A DNA stretch of 26,648 nt from a virus (lineage: Duplodnaviria; Heunggongvirae; Uroviricota; Caudoviricetes), in the IMG/VR virus record IMGVR_UViG_2531839149_000016, one strand, 5' to 3'. A model generated the notes under the pieces. That model saw only the letters and a program-made list of their open reading frames with translations, had not been told where the DNA came from and searched no databases. The translations under genes were made by a program, and so were the position numbers. This document shows positions 3,806-17,044 of the stretch, one piece after another. Each line of letters starts with the position of its first letter. Positions within the stretch are counted from its first letter, which is position 1.

Positions 3806-3947
3806 CTGGTATTAATATTTCGCTTTACGACCGATTTTTATCTGATGATATCATGCGGTTTTCATATACTGACTTACTGTCTTTTCTCCGTTAGCGATTT
3901 TCTCCTGCTCAGCGATGATTTTATCTTTGGCTTCTAGTTAATTTCGC

Positions 3948-4169
3948 TCACTTCGAACCTCTCTGTTTACTGATAAGCTCCAGATCTTGCTGGCAACTGG
4001 CACAAGTCCGACAACCCTGAACGGCCAGTCGTCTTCGTTCATCTATCGGATCGCCACACTCACAACAATGAGTGGCAGATATAGCCTGGTGGTTCAGGCG
4101 GCGCATTTTTATTGCTGTGTTGCGCTGTAATTCTTCAATTTCTGATGCTGAATCAATTATGTCTGCCAT
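3948..4169 (-). CDS. TraR/DksA-family C4 zinc-finger protein
   Basis: 73-aa ORF with a CxxC…CxxC motif (CCECGDPI…CRTCASC); common small protein of lambdoid early-left regions. Confidence 0.75.
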   Translation of the reverse strand: MADIIDSASEIEELQRNTAIKMRRLNHQAISATHCCECGDPIDERRRLAVQGCRTCASCQQDLELISKQRGSK

Positions 4170-4267
4170 CTTTCATTAATCCCTGAATTGTTGGTTAATA
4201 CGCTTGAGGGTGAATGCGAATAATAAAAAAGGAGCCTGTAGCTCCCTGATGATTTTGCTTTTCATGT

Positions 4268-4483
4268 TCACCGTTCCTTAAAGACGCCGTTCAACATGCC
4301 GATCGCCAGGCTTAAATGAGTCGGTGTGAATCCCATCAGCGTTACCGTTTCGCGGTGCTTCTTTAGTACGCTACGGCAAATGTCATCGACGTTTTTATCC
4401 GGAAACTGCTGTCTGGCTTTTTTGATTTCAGAATTAGCCTGACGGGCAATGCTGCGAAGGGCGTTTTCTTGCTGAGGTGTCAT
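4268..4483 (-). CDS. Hypothetical phage early protein (position of lambda orf61)
   Basis: ORF starting MTPQQENALRSIARQ… (71 aa from the internal ATG; the track ORF extends to 4549); same strand as exo/bet. Confidence 0.5.
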   Translation of the reverse strand: MTPQQENALRSIARQANSEIKKARQQFPDKNVDDICRSVLKKHRETVTLMGFTPTHLSLAIGMLNGVFKER

Positions 4484-4559: not shown

Positions 4560-4751
4560 TCATACCTGGTCTCTCTCATCTGCTTCTGCTTTCGCCACCA
4601 TCATTTCCAGCTTTTGTGAAAGGAATGCGGCTAACGTATGAAATTCTTCGTCTGTTTCTACTGGTATTGGCACAAACCTGACTCCAATTTGAGCGAGGCT
4701 ATGTGCCATCTCGATACTCGTTCTTAACTCAACGGGAGATGCTTTGTGCAT
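4560..4751 (-). CDS. Hypothetical phage early protein (position of lambda orf63)
   Basis: 63-aa ORF directly downstream of the orf60a-like gene in the leftward operon. Confidence 0.5.
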   Translation of the reverse strand: MHKASPVELRTSIEMAHSLAQIGVRFVPIPVETDEEFHTLAAFLSQKLEMMVAKAEADERDQV

Positions 4752-4906
4752 ACAGCTCCCCGTTTATTATTTATCTCCTCAGCCAGCCGCTGTGCTTTCA
4801 GGGGATTTCTGATAACAGAAAGGCCGGGAAATACCCAGCCTCGCTTTGTAACGGAGTAGACGAAAGTGATCGCACCTACCCGGATATTATCGTGAGGATG
4901 CGTCAT
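4724..4906 (-). CDS. Hypothetical phage early protein (position of lambda orf60a)
   Basis: 60-aa ORF whose ATG overlaps the exo stop in an ATGA arrangement, as orf60a does in lambda. Confidence 0.5.
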
Positions 4907-5583
4907 CGCCATTGCTCCCCAAATACAAAACCAATTTCAGCCAGTGCCTCGTCCATTTTTTCGATGAACTCCGGCACCATCTCGTCAAAACTCGCCATGT
5001 ACTTTTCATCCCGCTCAACCACGACATAATGCAGGCCTTCACGCTTCATGCGCGGGTCATAGTTGGCAAAGTACCAGGCATCTTTTCGCGTCACCCACAT
5101 GCTGTACTGCACCTGGGCCATGTAAGCCGATTTTATTGCCTCGAAACCACCGAGCCGGAATTTCATGAAATCCCGGGAGGTAAACGGGCATTTCAGTTCA
5201 AGGCCGTTGCCGTCACTGCATAAACCATCGGGAGAGCAGGCGGTGCGCATATTTTCGTCGCGATAGATGATCGGGGATTCAGTAATATTCACGCTGGAAG
5301 TGAATTCAAACAGGGTTCTGGCGTCGTTCTCGTACTGTTTTCCCCAGGCCAGCGCCTTAGCATTAACTTCCGGAGCCACACCGGTGCAAACCTCAGCCAG
5401 CAGGGTGTGGAAGTAGGACATTTTCATGTCAGGCCACTTCTTTCCTGAGCGGGGCTTTGCTATCACGTTGTGAACTTCTGAAGCGGTGATGACGCCGAGC
5501 CGTAATTTGTGCCATGCATCATCCCCCTGTTCGACAGCTCTCACGTCGATCCCGGTACGCTGCAGGATAATGTCCGGTGTCAT
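4903..5583 (-). CDS. exo: Lambda exonuclease (Red alpha)
   Basis: 226-aa ORF matching lambda Exo ([40 protein letters not shown]…GEQWR). Confidence 0.97.
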
Positions 5584-6365
5584 GCTGCCACCTTCTGCTC
5601 AGTGGCTTTCTGTTTAAGGAATCCAAGAGCTTTCACTGCTTCGGCCTGTGTCAGTTCTGACGATGCGCGAATGTCGCGGCGAAATATCTGGGAACAGAGC
5701 GGCAATAAGTCGTCATCCCATGTTTTATCCAGGGCGATCAGCAGAGTGTTAATCTCCTGCATGGTTTCATCGTTAACCGGAGTGATGTCGCGTTCCGGCT
5801 GACGTTCTGCAGTGTATGCAGTATTTTCGACAATGCGCTCGGCTTCATCCTTGTCATAGATACCAGCAAATCCGAAGGCCAGACGGGCACACTGAATCAT
5901 GGCTTTATGCCGTAACATCCGTTTGGGATGCGACTGCCACGGCCCCGTGATTTCTCTGCCTTCGCGGGTTTTGAATGGTTCGCGGCGGCATTCATCCATC
6001 CATTCGGTAACGCAGATCGGATGATTACGGTCCTTGCGGTAAATCCGGCATGTACAGGATTCATTGTCCTGCTCAAAGTCCATGCCATCAAACTGCTGGT
6101 TTTCATTGATGATGCGGGACCAGCCATCAACGCCCACCACCGGAACAATGCCGTTCTGCTTATCAGGGAAGGCGTAAATTTCTTTCGTCCACGGATTAAG
6201 GCCGTACTGGTTGGCGACGATCAGCAATGCGATGAACTGCGCATCGCTGGCATCACCTTTAAATGCCGTCTGGCGAAGAGGGGTGATCAGTTCCTGTGGG
6301 TCGACAGAATCCATGCCGACACGTTCAGCCAGCTTCCCAGCCAGCGTTGCGAGTGCTGTACTCAT
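5580..6365 (-). CDS. bet: Lambda Bet single-strand annealing protein (Red beta)
   Basis: 261-aa ORF matching lambda Bet ([261 protein letters not shown] from memory, near-identical here); ATGA overlap with exo. Confidence 0.97.
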
Positions 6366-6370
6366 CCGTT

Positions 6371-6667
6371 TTATACCTCTGAATCAATATCAACCTGGTG
6401 GTGAGCAATGGTTTCAACCATGTACCGGATGTGTTCTGCCATGCGCTCCTGAAACTCAACATCGTCATCAAACGCACGGGTAATGGCTTTTTTGCTGGCC
6501 CCGTGGCGTTGCAAATGATCGATGCATAGCGATTCAAACAGGTGCTGGGGCAGGCCTTTTTCCATGTCGTCTGCCAGTTCTGCCTCTTTCTCTTCACGGG
6601 CGATCTGCTGGTAGTGACGCGCCCAGCTCTGAGCCTCAAGACGATCCTGAATGTAATAAGCGTTCAT
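6371..6667 (-). CDS. gam: Lambda Gam (short form, RecBCD inhibitor)
   Basis: 98-aa ORF matching lambda GamS ([21 protein letters not shown]…VDIDSEV); the upstream extension that would give the long form runs into a stop 19 codons upstream. Confidence 0.95.
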
Positions 6668-6742
6668 GGCTGACCTCCTGAAAATGGCTGTGAAAATATC
6701 GCCCGCGAAATGCCAGGCTGATTAGGAAAACAGGAAAGGGGA

Positions 6743-7033
6743 TTAGTGATTCAGGCCGTTACCGCGTCCGTCGAGAAAAACTTCCACGAGCAAATCACGG
6801 GTATAAGTGCGCTCGATGCCGCGATGCAGATAAAGCCGTCCGCGTAAATTAGCTGATGCAGTCCAGGTACCATCTTTGTGTTTGACCAGCATTCCTGGCA
6901 TGACCGCGCCGCGATTAACGGTCTGCGTTCCGTAATGTTGATGAACCATAAAAACTCCTGCCCGTAAGCTGGGCTGCTGAACATATAGAGACTTCTGCGC
7001 GTATTCAGGCGGTGGATGGCCGCCGGTTGTCAT
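6743..7033 (-). CDS. ORF at the position and frame of lambda kil (possible Kil-like host division inhibitor); start uncertain
   Basis: Stop lies where lambda kil ends relative to gam; the track gives 96 aa, with internal ATGs at about 6901 and 6892 that would give a roughly 50-aa product; I could not reconcile the first few codons of the track ORF with the printed bases near 7020 by eye; no cIII-like coding sequence follows. Confidence 0.4.
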
Positions 7034-7226
7034 AACTAAGCCGCCTCGTTGAAGCGACTAAGGTATGAAATGTTGAGTTGATTTCAGCTGGTCACACCGA
7101 CGTTCACGCGTCCGTTTCACCCCTCGCACTCCCCGAAGCCTGCTGAAATTCAAACTGCGGATCTAAGCGGTCATCGCAACGGTGAATCAGGTGGTTGCCG
7201 TATCGTTGTGTTGTTGCGATGAACCT

Positions 7227-7255
7227 ATTTAAAACTATAGTTGTTTTACCGTCAA
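7227..7255 (-). promoter_or_regulatory. Candidate pL promoter with overlapping operator (-35 TTGACG, 17-bp spacer, -10 TTAAAT on the minus strand) within an array of GTTGTT(TTA) repeats
   Basis: Minus-strand sequence GTTGTTGACGGTAAAACAACTATAGTTTTAAAT closely parallels the pR region GTTGTTGACTAAAAACAACCATAGTTTTAATCT at 9870-9904; direct repeats AGTTGTTTTA at 7239, 7263 and 7275. Confidence 0.4.
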
Positions 7256-7393
7256 CAACAAAAGTTGTTTTATTGGTTGTTTTAGATATAACTGGTTGTA
7301 TTTAGGATGGATTTATTTTGTGACTTGAATCGCATAGCGATAACTGAAGCGAGGTTATGGTGGTTTTTTGAGCGGTTTGTGTGATGAGGGGAG

Positions 7394-7424
7394 GCAAAAG
7401 AAAACCCGGCACGGTGGCCGGGTT
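7394..7424 (-). terminator. Intrinsic terminator ending the cI / kinase-like / DUF3037 transcript (stem AACCCGGC / GCCGGGTT, then TTTTCTTTT on the minus strand)
   Basis: Perfect 8-bp GC-rich inverted repeat with a 6-nt loop followed by a T-tract, just downstream of the DUF3037 stop. Confidence 0.6.
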
Positions 7425-7457
7425 ATTAATAAGGAATATCACATACAAAAATAAATT

Positions 7458-8285
7458 TTAAACTTGGGGAAGTATTTTTTTTGCAAAATCAATAGTTTCT
7501 TTGTGGTTGGATGCAGGTATATGATTTATTTTCTTAGCATCCATAGTTCTCTTTATGATGTCAATAACTTTGCTTTGGCCTGAGTTTGGTGATTCAGGAG
7601 TTTCAATTGTGAATAAAATGTCATCAAGTGAAAGCAGGTTTTCTTCTGCTGCTCGAGTTATTCTCATCACCCAAGTATCACTATGCTCCATCATTTTTCC
7701 TGGTTCAGCTTGAGTGAATGCCAGAGGTTTGATGGCACATTGGATCCTGTCATGCTTCTTGGCGACCAATGGCATTGAGAACTTTGCGAAATACCCATCA
7801 ATGGTTGCTTGTTTGAAGACGTTCTTCAATCCATCTATTCTATCGATACTTCGTTTTAGCTCTCTGGCTAGAACATCTTCACGGCGCTCTTTTGTGTAGT
7901 CAGAGTGGTTTACATATTTATTGTAAATGCGGGCCAGCTCTTCTTTTGGGTTTTCGCTGAGAATCACTCTCGTAGAACTGAACTGAAAAATTGATTCTTT
8001 TTTGTTTGTAAAATATCTGAAGAATTGTGCAAGTTGTTGATGTCCAACAATCTGGGTCGCATGCATTTTTGCGAACTGTAGTTCTCTTTGTATTGAGTCT
8101 TTTGCTACAGGGAAAATACAATCATCATGGAAAAAATTCTTTACACGAGAGTCATTTCGCTTTGTGAGCTGGAAATCAAAGTAATTTTCTTTTGGCGCGC
8201 ACAGAAGTACGCCTATGTTTGCGAATTCTTCAGTCTCCGCATAAGGCGCATAGCGAACGATGCTATATAGGCATGGAGTTGTCAT
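7458..8285 (-). CDS. DUF3037-family protein
   Basis: ORF starting MTTPCLYSIVRYAPYAETEEFANIGVLL…, the characteristic N-terminal signature of DUF3037 proteins as I recall it; its ATG overlaps the upstream gene's stop (ATGA), implying translational coupling; the track ORF extends to 8300 from a non-ATG start. Confidence 0.75.
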   Translation of the reverse strand: MTTPCLYSIVRYAPYAETEEFANIGVLLCAPKENYFDFQLTKRNDSRVKNFFHDDCIFPVAKDSIQRELQFAKMHATQIVGHQQLAQFFRYFTNKKESIFQFSSTRVILSENPKEELARIYNKYVNHSDYTKERREDVLARELKRSIDRIDGLKNVFKQATIDGYFAKFSMPLVAKKHDRIQCAIKPLAFTQAEPGKMMEHSDTWVMRITRAAEENLLSLDDILFTIETPESPNSGQSKVIDIIKRTMDAKKINHIPASNHKETIDFAKKILPQV

Positions 8286-9031
8286 TCTATTGCGCTCCAA
8301 AATTCATCACAATCACCTTTGTCTAGCGTAGTGCAGACAAAAGGTAAAAACTCCTCATCTACTATCCACTCTTCTGGAATTTCGTCAAGGATAGCAGGAA
8401 GCTTGTGTAAACTGTTAACGACCCTCTGGCGGTACTCTACGCGATCCACTAAATCATATTGCCATTTGCGGTTACCAGGGCCGTACACGTGCACAGAAAA
8501 ATCTTCAGGTCCAGCATTCTGATCAAATGAGAGATTATGGTCAATCAGATAATACTTATCGTTACTGATGTCATAAAGGATGTTAACGTTTCCACCTTTG
8601 TCAGTAAGCGTTCTGTCTGCATTTAATATCCATTTATCAAAAACATAGATTAATTTTTGCTGTTCGACTGGGATGATCGTTTCGTTTCTTGACTGCGTAA
8701 ACGTTAACGCTATTGCACCGTCAATGAACAATGAAGCAAAGGCATATCCTGTACAAATTTGTTGCTGCAGATCAGGTGAGTACTCTATAAGTTCCTCTGG
8801 CACAAATACGATTTTAAAGTCAGGTAAAGGAAGGCCGATATCATTAGCCAAACACGCCGAAATGAACTCAGCTAAGAGATTTTTCGGGGGCATTGATGGT
8901 TTTGACTTCAAAACATACAACTGCCCATCATCACATTTGCAAAGAAATGGCTGAGTGGAACCTTCATTGATGCGACGTATTACTTCAACGACATTAGGTA
9001 TTGCACTATTGCTGCTCGCTACGCACTCCAT
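8282..9031 (-). CDS. Small HipA-like / protein-kinase-like-fold protein (putative Ser/Thr kinase)
   Basis: About 250 aa; kinase-like motifs readable in the translation: beta3-Lys (YVLKSK), catalytic-loop-like ILNADRTLTDKGGNVNIL (D…N), and a DFG-like LIDHNLSF; AAGGG RBS 6 nt upstream of the ATG at 9031. Confidence 0.65.
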   Translation of the reverse strand: MECVASSNSAIPNVVEVIRRINEGSTQPFLCKCDDGQLYVLKSKPSMPPKNLLAEFISACLANDIGLPLPDFKIVFVPEELIEYSPDLQQQICTGYAFASLFIDGAIALTFTQSRNETIIPVEQQKLIYVFDKWILNADRTLTDKGGNVNILYDISNDKYYLIDHNLSFDQNAGPEDFSVHVYGPGNRKWQYDLVDRVEYRQRVVNSLHKLPAILDEIPEEWIVDEEFLPFVCTTLDKGDCDEFWSAIE

Positions 9032-9153
9032 CACTAACCCTTATGTGATTCAAGTCTTCCATCTCATTACTCCGCATCTCAAAGAGCGGTTTAACACTGC
9101 GTGTTTAAAGAAAAACAACAGGCCTATTGCTGTAACTGTTTTTTAGCCTCACT

Positions 9154-9843
9154 TTAACCATGCTTCCTATATGTCTGCGGCATGCTCCCAATAACCTTAC
9201 CGAAGATGAACACCCGGTTCATCTCGTCTTTCTCGATCGGGTCCCACGGTGAGTAGCTTTTGTTATCAGAGATGACCAGCAGCTTATCCTTCATCATTTG
9301 CAGGCGCTTTACATGGGCTGTGTCGTCGTACAGAAACGCATAGATACCATCACCGTCGAAAGATTTAACTGTGATATCAACGAACAGCAGATCACCTGGT
9401 TCGATCGTTCCTGACATGCTGTCACCACGCACGTTAATGATGCGGATATTTTCCGCCTTCCTACCATCGAACATGTGACGAGCATCGTCAAACGAGTACT
9501 CAACCGAGCGTAGAACTTCTACAAACTCACGGTTGATGACTCCCGGCCCAGCACTGACTTCTATATCAAGAACGTCAATCTTGAAGTATTTGGAATGGCT
9601 GACAGTTGATTGTATTGGTTGCACTGTACTGTCTGACATATTTCCAACGCCAGAAGATAACCATTCTGCGCGCACACCCAAAGCGTTCGCGATCTCCACG
9701 ATTTTAGTTGTTTGATTAGCTTTCCCTGTTTCGATTTTCTGAATAGCAGCTTGGCTAACCCCGACCAAATCCCCAAGCGCCTTTTGTGTAAGGCCTCGCG
9801 CTAATCTGGCTTCTTTAAGTCTTTCTGAGAGTGTTGTTTTCAT
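9154..9843 (-). CDS. cI: CI-like prophage repressor (N-terminal XRE HTH + C-terminal S24 LexA-like autopeptidase domain)
   Basis: 229 aa from MKTTLSERLKEARLARGLTQKALGDLVGVSQAAIQKIETGK…; C-terminal GDSM…K motif typical of S24 self-cleaving repressors; divergent from cro. Confidence 0.9.
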   Translation of the reverse strand: MKTTLSERLKEARLARGLTQKALGDLVGVSQAAIQKIETGKANQTTKIVEIANALGVRAEWLSSGVGNMSDSTVQPIQSTVSHSKYFKIDVLDIEVSAGPGVINREFVEVLRSVEYSFDDARHMFDGRKAENIRIINVRGDSMSGTIEPGDLLFVDITVKSFDGDGIYAFLYDDTAHVKRLQMMKDKLLVISDNKSYSPWDPIEKDEMNRVFIFGKVIGSMPQTYRKHG

Positions 9844-9947
9844 AGTCCAAATGTACAACCAAGGTTTTATTCCATCAAACGAAAATGGTTGTTGACTAAA
9901 AACAACCATAGTTTTAATCTTGATTCAAATTAACCACGGAGGTTGTT
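9844..9947. promoter_or_regulatory. oR / pR / pRM divergent promoter-operator region
   Basis: pR candidate: -35 TTGACT, 17-bp spacer, -10 TAATCT, then GGAGG and the cro ATG; palindrome ATGGTTGTTGACTAAAAACAACCAT overlaps the -35; on the opposite strand TTGATG-17-TACATT lies just upstream of the cI ATG (near-leaderless, as for lambda pRM). Confidence 0.6.
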
Positions 9948-10178
9948 ATGAACCCAGCTATCAAAACAGCGATCAATATCGTTGGTTCACAAAAGAAACT
10001 GGGCGCTGCTTGCGAAGTTTCACAGCAGGCCGTCTATAAGTGGCTTCACAACAAAGCAAAGGTATCCCCTGAACATGTCGGCAGCATTGTTACGGCTACT
10101 GGTGGAGTAGTGAAGGCATACCAGATTCGCCCGGATCTTCCGAAGTTGTTTCCACACACCGAAAAGAACGCAGCTTAA
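9948..10178 (+). CDS. cro: Cro-like HTH regulator (YdaS/Cro family)
   Basis: 76-aa ORF divergent from cI, with an HTH (KKLGAACEVSQQAVYKWLHNK). Confidence 0.8.
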   Translation: MNPAIKTAINIVGSQKKLGAACEVSQQAVYKWLHNKAKVSPEHVGSIVTATGGVVKAYQIRPDLPKLFPHTEKNAA

Positions 10179-10247
10179 ATTTCCATTTCACGCTCTTTAA
10201 CAATAAGCAATCAACTTAACAGTCAATTCAAACTAAAGGAGTCAATT

Positions 10248-10787
10248 ATGCAACCACTTACATACCAACAGACTAGCGGATTTAGCCCGACTGCGGTGAT
10301 AAATCGTTCTCAAACAAAACAGGTGCCAGGCCACGAAAAAATCCGTGATGCCGTCCGCGCCTGGTCGGCTGAAGATAATCAGGATGTCGTTGCCACACTC
10401 ATTGTGAATGAGTATCGGGAGCAGGGCGGCGGCACTATCGATTTCCCTGATGATGTCAGCCGTGCACGCCAGAAGCTGTTCCGCTTCCTCGATAACAAAT
10501 TCGATTCTGAAAAATACCGAAATAACGTGCGTGAACTGACCCCGGCAATTCTGGCGGTACTACCGCTGGAATATCGCGGTTACCTGGTTGAGCAGGATAG
10601 CTTCATGGCTAGGTTGGCTGAAATGGAAAAGGAACTCAGTGAGGCAAAACAGGCTGTCATTCTCAACGCACCACGCCACCAGAAACTGAAGGAAATTAGT
10701 GAAGGTATTGTGTCGATGTTTCGTGTGGACCCAGATCTGGCTGGTCCATTGATGGCGATGGTTACTACCATGCTGGGGGCGATATGA
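10248..10787 (+). CDS. YdaT-family protein (occupies the cII position)
   Basis: 179-aa ORF; segments EYREQGGG and LTPAILAVLPLEYRGYL resemble Rac YdaT as I recall it; directly downstream of cro with an AAAGGAG RBS. Confidence 0.6.
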   Translation: MQPLTYQQTSGFSPTAVINRSQTKQVPGHEKIRDAVRAWSAEDNQDVVATLIVNEYREQGGGTIDFPDDVSRARQKLFRFLDNKFDSEKYRNNVRELTPAILAVLPLEYRGYLVEQDSFMARLAEMEKELSEAKQAVILNAPRHQKLKEISEGIVSMFRVDPDLAGPLMAMVTTMLGAI

Positions 10788-10873
10788 CAGGTTCAGAAAT
10801 GGCGAAAGCCGGTCTGCTGGAACAGAACCGACTTTCAGGTGCAAATCGTAACACACTCATTGCGGGAGGAATT

Positions 10874-11362
10874 ATGGCAAACACTGCTGAGATATTCAAT
10901 TTTCCAGTGCCGGATGCGGCACAAAAGGAGCCGCGCGTGGCAGATCTCGATGATGGTTATACGCGCATTGCAAATGAGTTGCTGGAAGCTGTAATGCTGG
11001 CCGGATTAACACAGCACCAGCTTCTGGTCTTTCTGGCTGTCATGCGCAAAACATATGGCTTTAATAAAAAACTGGATTGGGTTAGCAACGAGCAACTTTC
11101 CGAATTAACCGGGATATTGCCGCACAAGTGTTCTGCTGCAAAAAGTGTTCTGGTAAAGCGTGGGATTTTTATTCAGAGCGGGCGGAATATCGGCATCAAT
11201 AATGTGGTCAGTGAATGGTCAACATTACCCGAATCGGGTAAGAAAAATAAAGTTTACCTGAAAGAGGTAAATTTACCTGAATCAGGTAAGAAAAGTTTAC
11301 CTAAATCAGGTAAAGGCGTTTACCCGAATCAGGTAAACACAAAAGACAAACTAACAAGGTAA
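10874..11362 (+). CDS. O: Replication initiator O, N-terminal iteron-binding domain (lambda O-like); terminated by an in-frame TAA
   Basis: MANTAEIFNFPVPDAAQKEPRVADLDDGYTRIANELLEA… aligns with the lambda O N-terminus (…NVADLDDGYARLSNMLLEA…); GGGAGGA RBS upstream; the coding region contains the iterons. Confidence 0.8.
   Translation: MANTAEIFNFPVPDAAQKEPRVADLDDGYTRIANELLEAVMLAGLTQHQLLVFLAVMRKTYGFNKKLDWVSNEQLSELTGILPHKCSAAKSVLVKRGIFIQSGRNIGINNVVSEWSTLPESGKKNKVYLKEVNLPESGKKSLPKSGKGVYPNQVNTKDKLTR
11225..11336. repeat. ori: Origin of replication iterons: five near-palindromic repeats of about 17 bp, consensus TTACCTGAATCAGGTAA
   Basis: Repeats at about 11225, 11255, 11273, 11297 and 11320, inside the O gene and followed by an AT-rich stretch, the same architecture as lambda ori. 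Confidence 0.75.
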
Positions 11363-11383
11363 TGCTGCCAACTTACTGATTTA

Positions 11384-11824
11384 GTGTATGATGGTGATTT
11401 TAAGGTGCTTGCGTGGCTTCCATTTCCATCAGATGTCCTTCCTGCTCCGCTACTGAAAGCGGATGCTGCGATTCAGAACGGCAGCAAGTGGGGGACAGCA
11501 GAAGACCTGACCGCCGCAGAGTGGATGTTTGACATGGTGAAGACCATCGCGCCATCAGCCAGAAAACCGAATTTTGCAGGGTGGGCTAACGATATCCGTC
11601 TGATGCGTGAACGTGATGGACGTAACCACCGCGACATGTGTGTACTGTTCCGCTGGGCCTGCCAGGACAACTTCTGGTCCGGTAACGTGCTGAGTCCGGC
11701 CAAACTCCGCGACAAGTGGACCCAGCTCGAAATCAACCGAAACAAGCAACAGGCTGGCGTGACAGCCGGCAAACCAAAACTCGACCTGACGAACACTGAC
11801 TGGATTTACGGGGTGGATTTATGA
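11384..11824 (+). pseudogene. O: Replication protein O, C-terminal (P-interacting) portion, same frame as the N-terminal part but separated from it by a TAA at 11360-11362
   Basis: ORF ends …TNTDWIYGVDL with an ATGA overlap onto P, as the lambda O C-terminus does; it has only a GTG start and no RBS of its own; in-frame with the upstream O ORF. Confidence 0.6.
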
Positions 11825-12522
11825 AAAACATCGCCGCACAGATGGTTAACTTTGACCGTGAGCAGATGTGCCGGATCGCCAATAACATGCCGGAACAGTA
11901 CGACGAAAAGCCGCAGGTACAGCAGGTAGCGCAGATAATCAACGGTGTATTCAGCCAGTTACTGGCAACTTTCCCAGCGAGCCTGGCTAACCGGGACCAG
12001 AACGAACTGAACGAAATCCGCCGCCAGTGGGTGCTGGCTTTTCGGGAAAACGGGATCACCACAATGGAACAGGTTAACGCTGGAATGCGCGTAGCCCGTC
12101 GGCAGAATCGACCATTCCTGCCATCACCCGGGCAGTTTGTTGCATGGTGCCGGGAAGAAGCATCCGTTATCGCCGGACTGCCAAACGTCAGCGAGCTGGT
12201 TGATATGGTTTACGAGTATTGCCGGAAGCGAGGCCTGTATCCGGATGCGGAGTCTTATCCGTGGAAATCAAACGCGCACTACTGGCTGGTTACCAACCTG
12301 TATCAGAACATGCGGGCCAATGCGCTTACTGATGCGGAATTACGCCGTAAGGCCGCAGATGAGCTTGTCCATATGACTGCGAGAATTAACCGTGGTGAGG
12401 CGATCCCTGAACCAGTAAAACAACTTCCTGTCATGGGCGGTAGACCTCTAAATCGTGCACAGGCTCTGGCGAAGATTGCAGAAATCAAAGCTAAGTTCGG
12501 ACTGAAAGGAGCCAGTGTATGA
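11821..12522 (+). CDS. P: Lambda replication protein P (DnaB helicase loader)
   Basis: 233-aa ORF near-identical to lambda P (MKNIAAQMVNFDREQM…KFGLKGASV). Confidence 0.97.
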   Translation: MKNIAAQMVNFDREQMCRIANNMPEQYDEKPQVQQVAQIINGVFSQLLATFPASLANRDQNELNEIRRQWVLAFRENGITTMEQVNAGMRVARRQNRPFLPSPGQFVAWCREEASVIAGLPNVSELVDMVYEYCRKRGLYPDAESYPWKSNAHYWLVTNLYQNMRANALTDAELRRKAADELVHMTARINRGEAIPEPVKQLPVMGGRPLNRAQALAKIAEIKAKFGLKGASV

Positions 12523-12812
12523 CGGGAAAAGAAGCAATTATTCATTACCTGGGGACGCATAAGAGCTTCTGTGCGCAGGACGTTGCTGCGGTAACAGGCG
12601 CAACAGTAACCAGCATAAACCAGGCTGCGGCTAAAATGGCGCGGACAGGAATCTTAGTTATTGATGGTAAGGTCTGGCGAACGGTGTATTACCGGTTCGC
12701 TACCAGGGAAGAACGGGAAGGAAAGGTGAGCACGAATCTGATTTTCAAGGAGTGTCGCCAGAGTGCCGCGATGAAGCGGGTGTTGGCATTTTATCGCGGC
12801 AATTTTCAATAG
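12519..12812 (+). CDS. ren: Lambda Ren
   Basis: 97-aa ORF MTGKEAIIHYLGTH… matching lambda Ren; ATGA overlap with P. Confidence 0.9.
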   Translation: MTGKEAIIHYLGTHKSFCAQDVAAVTGATVTSINQAAAKMARTGILVIDGKVWRTVYYRFATREEREGKVSTNLIFKECRQSAAMKRVLAFYRGNFQ

Positions 12813-13296: not shown

Positions 13297-13857
13297 ATGA
13301 AGAAGATAATATTATTAGCCATGATTATTGGTTCTTTAACAGGTTGCGCTAGTGTGCCACCATTGAATTTTTCAACACCTAACGTGGGAGTTAGCCAGAA
13401 AAAAATAGATGCTGAAATTAAGTCATTAACGGTATCACTTGCTCGTCCAGATGAGCAGAAAGGGGATATCACTGCTGGTATGGAGGCTATAACTCCAATT
13501 TGGCGTGAATCTTTGCAGGAAGCACTCGACCGAATGACTATTTTTCGTGATAGTTCACCAAATACGGTTAGCTTAAATGTTAAAGTGTTGGCTCTTGACG
13601 TTCCTGCTTTTGGTGTTTCAATGACAACTAAAGCAATTGCAAGGTATGAAATAATCAACCGTGCGAATGGTGATATTATATATACGCAGGATATTGAGTC
13701 TACCGGTACTGTTCCAGCCAGTTACGCATTCTACGGTATTGTTCGAGCACGCGAATCTGTTAATCGCGCGGTGCAAAACAACATAACGCAGTTCTTGCAA
13801 GCATTAGAAAGTGTTGATCTTTCTCGTCCAATGTTTCCTGTTAGGGTAGCTAAATGA
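13297..13857 (+). CDS. Hypothetical lipoprotein
   Basis: Signal peptide with lipobox (MKKIILLAMIIGSLTGC); 186 aa; stop overlaps the start of the next lipoprotein gene (ATGA). Confidence 0.7.
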   Translation: MKKIILLAMIIGSLTGCASVPPLNFSTPNVGVSQKKIDAEIKSLTVSLARPDEQKGDITAGMEAITPIWRESLQEALDRMTIFRDSSPNTVSLNVKVLALDVPAFGVSMTTKAIARYEIINRANGDIIYTQDIESTGTVPASYAFYGIVRARESVNRAVQNNITQFLQALESVDLSRPMFPVRVAK

Positions 13858-14306
13858 AGCGATTATTCGTAATTGCTCCACTCTTAGTGTTGGTTGGATG
13901 CGCACAAAATATATCGCCAAATAGTTATTCTGTTGGCTCTGTGGGCATGGTTAATCGAACTATCGCTGGTACAGTTATTAGTGCCAGGGGGGTTGATATC
14001 AGTGGGACTTCCGCGTTAGGCGGGACTGCTGGGGCTGCCGTGGGGGCAACCGCTGGTTCTGCGCTTGGTGGGGGAGTTCGTTCTAATATCGTTGGTGCCG
14101 TTGGTGGTGCAGTCATTGGTGGTATTGCCGGGGCAGCAATCGAATCTTCAGCAACAAAACAAACAGGCATGGAATATGTTGTCGAAACTGAGAATGGGAA
14201 TTTAATGACCATTGTTCAAGGCAAAGATCCGTTATTTACTCAAGGAAGTAAGGTCCTTGTTTTATACGGAAACCCTTCTCGCATAATAACAGACCCGCGT
14301 CACTAA
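13854..14306 (+). CDS. Glycine-zipper lipoprotein (SlyB/Pcp-like, 17-kDa-antigen-type)
   Basis: Lipobox (LLVLVGC) followed by a Gly/Ala-rich segment (GGTAGAAVGATAGSALGGG…GAVGGAVIGGIAGAAI) typical of glycine-zipper outer-membrane lipoproteins. Confidence 0.7.
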   Translation: MKRLFVIAPLLVLVGCAQNISPNSYSVGSVGMVNRTIAGTVISARGVDISGTSALGGTAGAAVGATAGSALGGGVRSNIVGAVGGAVIGGIAGAAIESSATKQTGMEYVVETENGNLMTIVQGKDPLFTQGSKVLVLYGNPSRIITDPRH

Positions 14307-14496
14307 CATACCTTTTGATTTTGTAAAATCAATTCGTAATAATAAAGTCATCGGAGCTTGAACAACTCCGGTGACTTCTGCGCTAAACGGGGACGTTTAT
14401 GCGCACATACAATCCAAACTCTCTTCTCCCTTCACAGATGCAGAAATGCACCTGCGATTTTTTGCATCCTGCGTTTGACCTCTGCGGAGGTGAAGC

Positions 14497-14952
14497 GTGA
14501 ACCTACCACAAGATGGCATCAAATTACATCGCGGCAACTTCACCGCTATCGGCCAGCAGATCCAGCCTTATCTGGAGGACGGAAAATGCTTTCGCATGGT
14601 GCTTAAACCGTGGCGTGAGAAACGCAGTCTTTCCCAGAATGCACTCAGCCACATGTGGTACAGCGAAATCAGTGAATACCTTATCAGCAGGGGGAAATCG
14701 TTCGCTACCGCAGCATGGGTAAAAGAAGCTCTCAAACACACATACCTCGGTTATGAAACCAAAGAACTGGTTGATGTCGTAACCGGTGAAATCACCACTA
14801 TCCAGTCGTTACGCCATACCTCCGATCTTGATGCCGGAGAGATGTATGTCTTCCTGTGTAAGGTTGAAGCCTGGGCGATGAATATTGGCTGCCACCTGAC
14901 TATTCCGCAGAGCTGCGAGTTCCAGCTGCTGCGCGACAAGCAGGAGGCGTAA
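14497..14952 (+). CDS. NinB/YbcN-family protein
   Basis: 151-aa ORF with GTG start after GGAGG; contains an RSLSQN motif shared with NinB-type proteins; the gene order ybcN-ninE-ybcO-rusA-ylcG-Q matches the DLP12 nin region as I recall it. Confidence 0.65.
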
Positions 14953-15122
14953 TGGCTACACCGCTTATTCGTGTCATGAACGGACACATCTACAGAGTAC
15001 CAAATCGTCGTAAGCGTAAACCTGAGCTGAAGCCATCCGAAATACCAACACTGCTCGGATATACCGCCAGCCTGGTTGATAAAAAATGGTTGCGACTGGC
15101 AGCAAGGAGGAATCATGGCTGA
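14952..15122 (+). CDS. ninE: NinE-like small protein
   Basis: 56-aa ORF read by eye ([32 protein letters not shown]…), overlapping the ybcN-like stop. Confidence 0.55.
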   Translation: MATPLIRVMNGHIYRVPNRRKRKPELKPSEIPTLLGYTASLVDKKWLRLAARRNHG

Positions 15123-15405
15123 TTTGAGAAAAGCAGCGCGTGGTCGGGAATGCCAGGTAAGAACCCCTGGCGTATGTAATGGCAACCCTGAAACGTCTGT
15201 ACTGGCACATATCCGGCTGACTGGATTGTGCGGCACCGGTACCAAACCGCCAGACCTGATTGCCACCATTGCATGTTCTGCCTGCCACGACGAAATCGAC
15301 CGCCGCACACATTTTGTCGATGCCGCATATGCAAAAGAATGCGCGCTGGAAGGTATGGCGAGAACGCAGGTTATCTGGATGAAAGAGGGGGTAATCAAGG
15401 CGTGA
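15115..15405 (+). CDS. YbcO-like (DUF1364) zinc-binding protein
   Basis: 96 aa from [15 protein letters not shown]… with a Cys cluster (CNGNPET…CSACHDEID). Confidence 0.65.
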
Positions 15406-15764
15406 ATACCTACAACATCACATTACCCTGGCCTCCGAGCAATAATCGCTATTACCGCCATAATCGCGGGCGCACGCACGTCAGCGCAGAGGGGCAGGCA
15501 TACCGCGATAACGTCGCCCGAATCATTAAAAACGCAATGCTGGATATCGGCCTGGCTATGCCTGTGAAAATCCGCATTGAGTGCCACATGCCGGATCGCC
15601 GTCGCCGTGACCTGGATAATCTGCAAAAAGCCGCTTTTGACGCACTCACTAAAGCAGGTTTCTGGCTGGATGATGCTCAGGTCGTTGATTACCGCGTTGT
15701 GAAGATGCCTGTTACCAAAGGTGGGAGGCTGGAACTGACCATCACCGAAATGGGGAATGAATGA
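15402..15764 (+). CDS. rusA: RusA Holliday-junction resolvase
   Basis: 120 aa (GTG start overlapping the ybcO stop) [46 protein letters not shown]…, matching E. coli RusA as I recall it. Confidence 0.93.
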
Positions 15765-15901
15765 TGTTTGAGTTTTATATGGCAGAACTTCTTCGCCACC
15801 GCTGGGGGCATCTGCGCTTATATCGTTTCCCCGGTTCTGTTTTGACCGATTACCGAATACTGAAGAATTACGCCAAAACCCTGACAGGAGCAGGAGTATG
15901 A
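15761..15901 (+). CDS. YlcG-like small protein (46 aa)
   Basis: [49 protein letters not shown] read by eye; overlaps the rusA stop, as ylcG does in DLP12. Confidence 0.55.
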
Positions 15902-15986
15902 AGTCAGAGATAACAATCAACTAATACTGTTTTGTTGATTTTTGCTTGTGATTGGCGTTCTGGTCTGATTTTTGTGGAGTAAGTTG

Positions 15987-16364
15987 ATGCGTGATATTCA
16001 GATGGTTCTTGAGCGTTGGGGAGCGTGGGCGGCTAATAATCATGAAGATGTGACTTGGTCGTCCATTGCCGCCGGTTTTAAGGGATTAATTCCTTCAAAA
16101 GTAAAATCTCGCCCGCAATGTTGTGACGATGATGCGATGATCATTTGCGGGTGCATGGCCCGTCTGAAAAAGAACAACAGCGATTTGCATGATTTATTGG
16201 TGGACTATTATGTCGGCGGCATGACTTTTATGGCGCTTGCACGTAAGCATGGGCGATCTGATTGTTGGGTTGGCAGGATGCTTCAGAAAGCTGAGGGCGT
16301 AGTGGAGGGTATGCTGATGGTGTTGGATCTCCGATTGGAGATGGATGCTGATTGTTCGAAATAA
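15987..16364 (+). CDS. Q: Late-gene antiterminator Q (QuuD / phage-21-type)
   Basis: [62 protein letters not shown]… matches DLP12 QuuD as I recall it; the track ORF begins slightly upstream at a TTG. Confidence 0.85.
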
Positions 16365-16519: not shown

Positions 16520-17044
16520 TTATTGTTTAACCCATAATAATTCATTGACATTGAATCCCAACTTTTGAGCGGTTCGCACATAGTCTGCTTTTACTTTATC
16601 TGGAATAGTTGGGGTCCTTGCCAGAATCCATAGGTATTCTCTGTTCGGACCACTGACAAGAGCATACTTATACTCATCATCCAGTTTGATTACATTATAG
16701 CCACCATAGAAGGGGCCAAAAAACGAAACCTTCAATGCTGCAGTTTTAGTATCTCCAGTAAAGTATGCTTTACCTTCGCTCTCGCTCCATTTATTTTTCG
16801 TTGGATCGTATCCACGGTTAAGTACACGAATCCCTCCGTCGTTCCGTTTTCCATAAGTAGCGCTGACCTGTTCCAGACCACGTTCGAACCGGTTCTCGAG
16901 GCGAGCTATTTCATACCATTTTCCGAGGTAGCGGTTGGCGTCAAAATTTGTAATCGGCTGCACACCTTTAGGTGGTGTCGGGGCCTTACATGCTATAAGA
17001 GTGAAAGAGAGTGCAATGCCAGTCAACACAGGCCATAACTTCAT
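16520..17044 (-). CDS. Blc-like outer-membrane lipocalin (lipoprotein)
   Basis: 174-aa ORF with lipobox (LIAC) and strong resemblance to E. coli Blc (…NFDANRYLGKWYEIARLENRFERGLEQVSATY…FFGPFYGGYNVI…EYLWILARTPT…), but clearly divergent from the chromosomal blc. Confidence 0.85.
   Translation of the reverse strand: MKLWPVLTGIALSFTLIACKAPTPPKGVQPITNFDANRYLGKWYEIARLENRFERGLEQVSATYGKRNDGGIRVLNRGYDPTKNKWSESEGKAYFTGDTKTAALKVSFFGPFYGGYNVIKLDDEYKYALVSGPNREYLWILARTPTIPDKVKADYVRTAQKLGFNVNELLWVKQ

Follow-up and report, generated by a model that had tools for sequence, protein, structure and literature searches.

The stretch of DNA analysed here (the window, the whole 26,648 nucleotides of the IMG/VR virus record IMGVR_UViG_2531839149_000016, assigned to the Caudoviricetes) carries, directly downstream of a cI repressor gene and on the same strand, two overlapping genes, hipA and hipD, whose products are identical to those of the anti-phage defence system HipAD, also known as DS-6 and catalogued as the PADLOC candidate PDC-M66. 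Both genes lie on the minus strand. The first, hipA (8282-9031), encodes a putative toxin of 249 residues resembling the Ser/Thr kinases of the HipA_2 family, as judged from Pfam, PADLOC, the identity to DS-6A and an AlphaFold2 model compared with Foldseek, while the second, hipD (7458-8285), encodes a DUF3037 protein of 275 residues with the N-terminus MTTPCLYSIVRYAPY, proposed to act as antitoxin or sensor. The open reading frame of hipA runs to 8282 from either a GTG at 9034 or an ATG at 9031, the former adding one residue; the ATG, which is the start used in RefSeq and GenBank and gives the 249 residues, is the likely one. The ATG of hipD (8285-8283) overlaps the TGA of hipA (8284-8282), and the resulting ATGA at 8282-8285, read directly from the sequence, points to translational coupling of the two genes.

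A spacer of 122 nucleotides (9032-9153) separates the start of hipA from the stop codon of cI. Neither a terminator-like nor a promoter-like consensus was found on its minus strand, and it is structured less than shuffled controls (z +1.19). The repressor gene, which carries HTH_3 and Peptidase_S24 domains (Pfam, RefSeq annotation), occupies 9154-9843 on the minus strand; next in the coordinates, on its 5' side, come the OR region with pRM and pR (9844-9947) and cro on the plus strand (9948-10178). On the other side of the pair, an intrinsic terminator on the minus strand (7394-7424) takes the position of tIMM in lambda: its stem of 8 bp (7424-7403), six of them G-C, is followed by the U-tract UUUUCUUUU, and the hairpin has a folding energy of -14.7 kcal/mol (z -2.4). 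Operator half-sites of the type GTTGTT/AACAAC cluster at 9888-9947, in OR, and again at 7240-7281, with 9-10-mers common to both clusters. The second cluster places a probable OL/pL region (7229-7300) left of the terminator, which makes the order OR-cI-cargo-terminator-OL that of lambda (OR-cI-rexA-rexB-tIMM-OL), and the pair probably lies within the immunity region, between cI and the terminator, with OL/pL beyond the latter.

Identity of the pair with HipAD

String comparison revealed that all 249 residues of HipA and all 275 residues of HipD are identical to WP_000389051.1 (DS-6A) and WP_000210934.1, respectively. DS-6 has been described as a HipA-related kinase with a DUF3037/DUF1829 protein and 'renamed HipAD' (DefensePredictor, Science 2026, PMC13092281); its proteins come from an E. 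coli assembly in a set of 69 strains, mainly ECOR (PMC13092281, supplement). The same article credits Brenes & Laub (Cell Host Microbe 2025) with the independent discovery of HipAD, and hypothesises that DS-6 is toxin-antitoxin-like and possibly abortive. Protection was measured in E. coli MG1655 against phage Bas1, with a negative logarithm of the efficiency of plating of 3.9 in the screen and, in the follow-up, of 5.18 for the wild type versus 0.88 for the D139A mutant; it depends on the catalytic Asp139 of the kinase, and an AlphaFold3 model in the same study gives interface predicted TM-scores of 0.76-0.79 for the contacts between the A and B proteins and of 0.67 for those between B and DNA (PMC13092281). 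The mutated Asp139 is the D of the ILNADR motif in the HipA studied here.

Further evidence comes from catalogues and from other genomes. Both proteins match the profiles of the PADLOC candidate PDC-M66 (HipA the PDC-M66A profile, E 5.8e-15; HipD the PDC-M66B profile, E 3.8e-16). Among phage records, megablast recovered Escherichia phage PhiR5_1 (PV340545.1), which is 99.9% identical over 7300-9950 and in which the pair is annotated as 'HipA toxin' and 'HipD antitoxin'. Furthermore, a homologous HipA/DUF3037 pair beside Retron-Sda1 has been shown to act as a stand-alone defence, which is abolished by deletion of HipA; deletion of the DUF3037 gene at this locus is toxic, and the authors noted the PDC-M66 label (PLoS Biol 2025, PMC12548924).

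The pair is thus the already known system HipAD, that is DS-6 and PADLOC candidate PDC-M66, and its membership follows from the identity of the protein sequences; the observation stands, but it is not a new one. A preliminary description of this stretch, made from the letters alone, had proposed an anti-phage or toxin-antitoxin-like module, and this holds given the Bas1 protection by identical proteins (PMC13092281) and the toxicity seen in the homologous pair (PMC12548924). The mutation that it had suggested, of the D in ILNADR, corresponds to the published D139A, which cut the protection against Bas1 from 5.2 to 0.9 logs (PMC13092281). Its implied novelty is lost: it had itself listed an already named, characterised system as an outcome that would speak against it, and HipAD is such a system.

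The kinase and its DUF3037 partner

HipA is matched over its full length by the Pfam family HipA_2 (PF20613, E 9.9e-77, residues 15-248). In an alignment of 43 homologues, the invariant columns include K42 (in YVLKSK), E55, and N137, D139 and R140 (in ILNADR), together with G146-G147-N148 and N150, and D164-H165-N166 (in IDHNLSF). The AlphaFold2 model, with a predicted local distance difference test score (pLDDT) of 90.6 and a predicted TM-score (pTM) of 0.89, is matched in Foldseek by type II phosphatidylinositol 4-kinases, CtkA of H. pylori, HipA of Shewanella and E. coli, and HipT of Legionella (E 2e-6 to 3e-3). These matches assign the modelled protein to the HipA/PI3-4-kinase branch of the protein-kinase-like fold, pared to the catalytic core.

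HipD matches DUF3037 (PF11236, E 7.6e-24) at residues 7-125. Its model combines high local confidence (pLDDT 91.5) with a low pTM of 0.56, which suggests two domains linked by a helix; the model indicates a layout with the N-terminal DUF3037 domain (approximately 1-125), the linker helix and a C-terminal alpha/beta domain (approximately 155-275). Foldseek returned nothing significant for this model. Across 60 homologues the C-terminal half conserves E136, P172 and A184-I185-K186, of which only E136 and K186 are invariant. When the residues are mapped by the secondary-structure order of the model, the positions of the PD/ExK motif read P172-L and A184-I185-K186 throughout the family: 'PD' keeps its Pro and 'ExK' its Lys, and both metal-binding acidic residues are absent. 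We infer, with moderate strength, that the C-terminal domain is probably a non-catalytic descendant of the PD-(D/E)xK fold. The isolated C-terminal halves of five diverse HipD homologues gave no Pfam family with HMMER. The assignment of this region to the DUF1829 nucleases was rejected, since the catalytic residues are absent and no HMMER match supports it.

A profile of the full-length HipD matched 2046 cluster representatives, 331 of them at E 1e-30 or better. Among the best 150 matches, all but two are approximately 260-310 residues long, and 149 align to the profile as a single block that spans most or all of it; as far as such alignments tell, the full-length two-domain architecture is conserved across the 2046 representatives. 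Both HipA and HipD match PHROGs of unknown function, NCBIfam holds no model for either, and a sequence search of the two against solved structures returned unrelated proteins only (best E 0.24-0.79).

These results also bear on the structural part of the preliminary description. The same-strand pair downstream of cI with its ATGA overlap at 8282-8285 is exact in the sequence; the slot likened to that of rexAB, between cI and the terminator of the immunity region with OL/pL beyond, is the one found; the terminator proposed at 7394-7424 is a good one, and no terminator was found in 9032-9153, in agreement with the claim that cI and the pair are not separated. The kinase of roughly 250 residues with a minimal HipA-like fold is borne out by its Pfam match, its invariant catalytic residues and its structural matches, its motifs YVLKSK, ILNADR and IDHNLSF all fall on invariant columns, and the DUF3037 assignment of the 275-residue protein is confirmed. 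Of the HipA_C or protein-kinase-like assignment proposed for profile searches, the kinase family stood, as HipA_2, and HipA_C did not. Among the details, the start of the kinase moves from GTG 9034 to ATG 9031, and the span of 7458-9153 given for the pair includes the 122-nucleotide spacer.

An exchangeable cassette in a defective prophage

Three sibling phages, PhiR34_1, PhiR47_2 and PhiR26_1, have the same cI, cro, cII and left arm as the window. In blastn comparisons, their homology to it breaks off at 9154/9155 (the cI stop codon) and sets in again at 7422/7423, within the stem of the terminator; the breakpoints are identical in the three siblings, which are otherwise 95-99% identical here. 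What they enclose differs from phage to phage. PhiR34_1 has 122 bp without cargo and a near-identical hairpin at the empty site (L007, 1625-1746), PhiR47_2 has genes annotated as the GevT toxin and GevA antitoxin (L008, 1631-3059), and PhiR26_1 has a putative lipoprotein gene (L009, 1631-2011). The corresponding segment of the window, 7423-9153 on the minus strand, has a GC content of 40% versus 44.8% for the window as a whole. From these alignments, HipAD is one allele of a swappable cassette at a sharply bounded site of cargo exchange. Any cargo in this position would come last on the cI transcript and use the common terminator.

E. coli 042 carries a prophage adjoining ybhC, where lambda attaches, and the left 23.6 kb of the window match it at 99.8-99.99% identity. 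This prophage (window positions 1-23642) is defective: a small-terminase-like gene (186 aa, 22223-22783) runs directly into a C-terminal tail-fibre fragment (22864-23436), which means that all head and tail genes are missing, and that cI and hipAD are kept by a cryptic prophage. The IS2 element of the E. coli 042 copy is not present in the window prophage. Equating the window with PhiR5_1 was considered and rejected, since only 3935-4465, 4749-12787 and 14339-16030 match that phage. Of 5426 complete E. coli genomes, 284 carry the hipAD DNA, each as a single chromosomal copy, and in 282 of these it is at least 99% identical.

Homologous pairs in other genomes

HipD homologues with only 48-49% identity are encoded next to a HipA_2 gene in the slot between cI and N, behind different S24 repressors, in an E. 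coli prophage with early genes of lambdoid/P22 type and in Proteus prophages. The pair is also found in a P4-like satellite of Yersinia, in a P2-like prophage of Novosphingobium, where it lies next to the portal gene, and in chromosomal contexts in Idiomarina and Pseudomonas. Adjacency and the overlap of four nucleotides are kept in all eight of the distinct homologous gene contexts examined, and the co-occurrence of the two families elsewhere, without which the preliminary description would have given up its reading, is therefore present. Taken together, the recurrence in 284 genomes and the conservation of the pair out to Pseudomonas, Idiomarina and Novosphingobium argue that the association is not due to chance.

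Some of these neighbourhoods hold further genes. In a Proteus prophage with a diverged HipAD, a gene of 375 aa with a RelA_SpoT domain stands directly after N (L013, 7571-8698) and may be further defence cargo in the early-left operon; in a sibling prophage (L012) the same position is taken by a gene for a ClpP-like protease, on the opposite strand. In Idiomarina, two genes on the opposite strand adjoin the pair, one AAA/KAP-NTPase-like (608 aa) and the other without Pfam hit (488 aa), and this neighbourhood (L003, 5911-9257) looks like a defence island.

Neighbouring features of the prophage

The cI product has 229 residues from ATG 9843 in RefSeq (690 nt in the identical E. coli 042 prophage), and the frame is open to 9909. 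In PhiR5_1 the gene is annotated with 251 residues, from a start that lies within a perfect palindrome of 25 bp, ATGGTTGTTGACTAAAAACAACCAT, at 9885-9909. The palindrome, within the OR region, looks like an operator; with the start inside it and the RefSeq start at 9843, the longer annotation is doubtful and probably wrong.

Between the probable OL/pL region and kil, which starts at 7033, no N-like open reading frame was found in 7034-7300, which contains no Rfam match for an antitermination RNA and is overall not unusually structured. A hairpin with a stem of approximately 10 bp (UCAUCGCAAC...GUUGCGAUGA) is located at roughly 7170-7220. Unlike here, N follows directly after the HipAD module in prophages with a diverged HipAD (L010, L012). 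To the right of cro, the gene in the position of cII (10248-10787, 179 aa), whose product is not a CII of lambda type, is annotated as 'activator protein cII' in PhiR5_1 and by RefSeq as 'toxin YdaT domain-containing protein'. In positions converted from the E. coli 042 record and with the annotation of that record, two further places hold non-phage-like cargo: a YajG-family lipoprotein gene and a hypothetical gene in the nin region (13297-14306), and a lipocalin-family gene on the opposite strand directly after Q (16520-17044).

Proposed mechanism and alternatives

We consider it highly probable that a defective lambdoid prophage, located at ybhC (the site of lambda attachment), carries HipAD (DS-6, PDC-M66) as anti-phage defence cargo within its immunity region, and that the system acts broadly as follows. 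Expression of hipAD in the lysogen would be continuous, chiefly from the 3' portion of a cI message that starts at pRM. This model is based on the location of the cassette, whose ends coincide with the cI stop codon and the common terminator, and on the lack of a terminator between cI and hipA; the arrangement makes it plausible that the pair is transcribed by read-through from pRM alone. HipD would bind HipA and keep it inactive until infection by a sensitive phage relieves the inhibition. HipA would then phosphorylate an essential host factor, the cell would be arrested and the growth of the phage aborted. The target would most likely be a component of translation, such as an aminoacyl-tRNA synthetase, by analogy with HipA and GltX or HipT and TrpS; to our knowledge, all characterised kinases of the HipA family hit host translation factors of this kind. 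The C-terminal domain of HipD, as a catalytically dead restriction-endonuclease-like module, may bind DNA and serve autoregulation or sensing.

Three points weigh against this reading. Bas1 is the only phage recorded for DS-6 among the screen rows in part 1 of the nine parts of Table S7 (PMC13092281), and the range of phages affected by HipAD may be narrow. The toxicity of the kinase without its partner rests on the homologous pair, not on the present one. DS-6 was moreover functional on a low-copy plasmid with only a 'predicted native promoter region' (PMC13092281), which means that read-through from pRM is not required for expression and that an internal promoter may exist.

It is accordingly possible, if on the unlikely side, that hipAD is transcribed mainly from a promoter of its own in or near the 3' end of cI or in the spacer. 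The rexB gene of lambda does have a secondary promoter, and the plasmid-borne activity of DS-6 fits the same picture. Against it stand the lack of any match to the sigma-70 consensus on the minus strand of 9032-9153, and a cassette whose edge falls exactly at the cI stop codon and whose terminator is common to all cargo variants, which is the design expected of a passenger on the cI transcript.

A bolder version of the proposed mechanism makes HipD a sensor rather than a passive antitoxin, its degenerate restriction-endonuclease-like C-terminal domain recognising either a DNA structure specific to the phage or a phage protein bound to DNA, and thereby releasing the kinase; separately, the exact boundary of the cassette could reflect a dedicated mechanism for swapping lambdoid defence cargo with immunity undisturbed. 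We offer this as speculation, with only a modest chance of being right.

HipA might instead exclude phages directly, phosphorylating a phage protein or a host factor that the phage needs, so that the cell survives. The Stk kinase of phage 933W reportedly excludes HK97 in such a non-abortive way, and other exclusion genes expressed in lysogens likewise lie next to cI. The smaller plaques of Bas1 that accompany the lower efficiency of plating in the DS-6 data (PMC13092281) would also agree with it. We nevertheless judge direct exclusion improbable: the homologous kinase is toxic without its DUF3037 partner and without phage, which argues for targets in the host (PMC12548924), and the translation factors hit by the characterised HipA-family kinases point the same way.

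That the pair serves mainly as an addiction or stabilisation toxin-antitoxin module for the prophage, or in hipBA-like persistence, with defence as a side effect, would suit the toxin and antitoxin behaviour of the homologous pair (PMC12548924), as well as a prophage that is defective yet retained and hipAD DNA so uniform in the 282 genomes. This is very unlikely in view of the kinase-dependent defence of 4-5 logs (PMC13092281), the location of the module at recognised hotspots of defence cargo in four unrelated types of mobile element, and the presence in the same sibling slot of GevTA, also annotated as toxin and antitoxin. Finally, the notion of HipD as effector instead of antitoxin, with a PD-(D/E)xK nuclease activity that is switched on when HipA phosphorylates it, can hardly be sustained when the expected metal-binding D and E positions are P172-L and A184 (A-I-K) across the 60 homologues, HMMER finds no nuclease family, and deletion of the DUF3037 gene of the homologous pair is toxic rather than harmless (PMC12548924).

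Significance and relation to known systems

As a discovery, the locus adds little: the system already has a name and an entry among the catalogued defence candidates (PDC-M66), and experiments on the very same proteins have validated it. It is of some use as a control, the function, the logic of the slot and the informative mutation having all been predicted from the raw sequence alone. What is new here are the limits of the cassette, exactly from the cI stop codon to the common terminator and with alternative cargo in the siblings, the homologues at 48-49% identity that other prophages carry in the same place, between cI and N, and a C-terminal half of HipD that looks like a restriction-endonuclease fold without the catalytic acidic residues. 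The remaining interest lies in the substrate of HipAD and its phage trigger, in this dead-nuclease-like domain, and in the clean site of cassette exchange. The limits of the cassette constitute a natural experiment on the exchange of immunity-region cargo, in which the same cI and terminator enclose HipAD, GevTA, a lipoprotein gene or nothing.

Prophage-borne exclusion by Ser/Thr kinases is represented by Stk of the Stx phage 933W, Stk2 and PD-T4-6, which protect lysogens from other phages. Unlike HipAD, these are single-protein kinases of the Hanks (eukaryotic-like) type without a DUF3037 partner. RexAB of lambda occupies the same slot as HipAD, downstream of a co-oriented cI and ahead of the immunity terminator and OL/pL, and is alike in its expression in the lysogen, which is predicted here, and in its action on superinfecting phages. 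RexA activates the membrane ion channel RexB; HipAD, whose effector is a protein kinase, has no relation to them in sequence or fold, the Pfam, PHROGs and PADLOC matches of the pair being only to the HipA_2 and DUF3037 families, with no homology to RexA or RexB.

With canonical HipBA and HipBST, the present system has in common the HipA/PI3-4-kinase-like fold, with the equivalent catalytic Asp, Mg-binding Asn/Asp and ATP-binding Lys, and, if the homologous pair is a guide, a toxic kinase neutralised by a protein partner. The HipA of canonical HipBA has approximately 440 residues with N-terminal domains, whereas the kinase described here has 249, with HipA_2 as its only Pfam match and without HipA_N, Couple_hipA or HipA_C; the Foldseek match to HipA spans the kinase core only (TM-score of approximately 0.29 when normalised by the length of HipA). 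The canonical partner, HipB, is an Xre-type helix-turn-helix protein encoded upstream, whereas here the gene upstream of hipA is the phage cI and the partner is encoded downstream, a DUF3037 protein of 275 residues that matches no helix-turn-helix family and is not HipS. With its reversed gene order and different partner family, the pair is, by sequence, not a canonical hipBA or hipBST module.

The pair at Retron-Sda1 comes closer, with the same two families, stand-alone defence, a required kinase and toxicity upon loss of DUF3037; it differs in being a distant homologue, inside a retron operon and tested against Bas51 (PMC12548924). HipAD/DS-6 agrees with the present pair in its proteins, without any difference, in gene order, in the overlap of four nucleotides and in the context of a prophage immunity region (PhiR5_1), and the distinction here is one of residence, in a defective chromosomal prophage rather than in an inducible phage.

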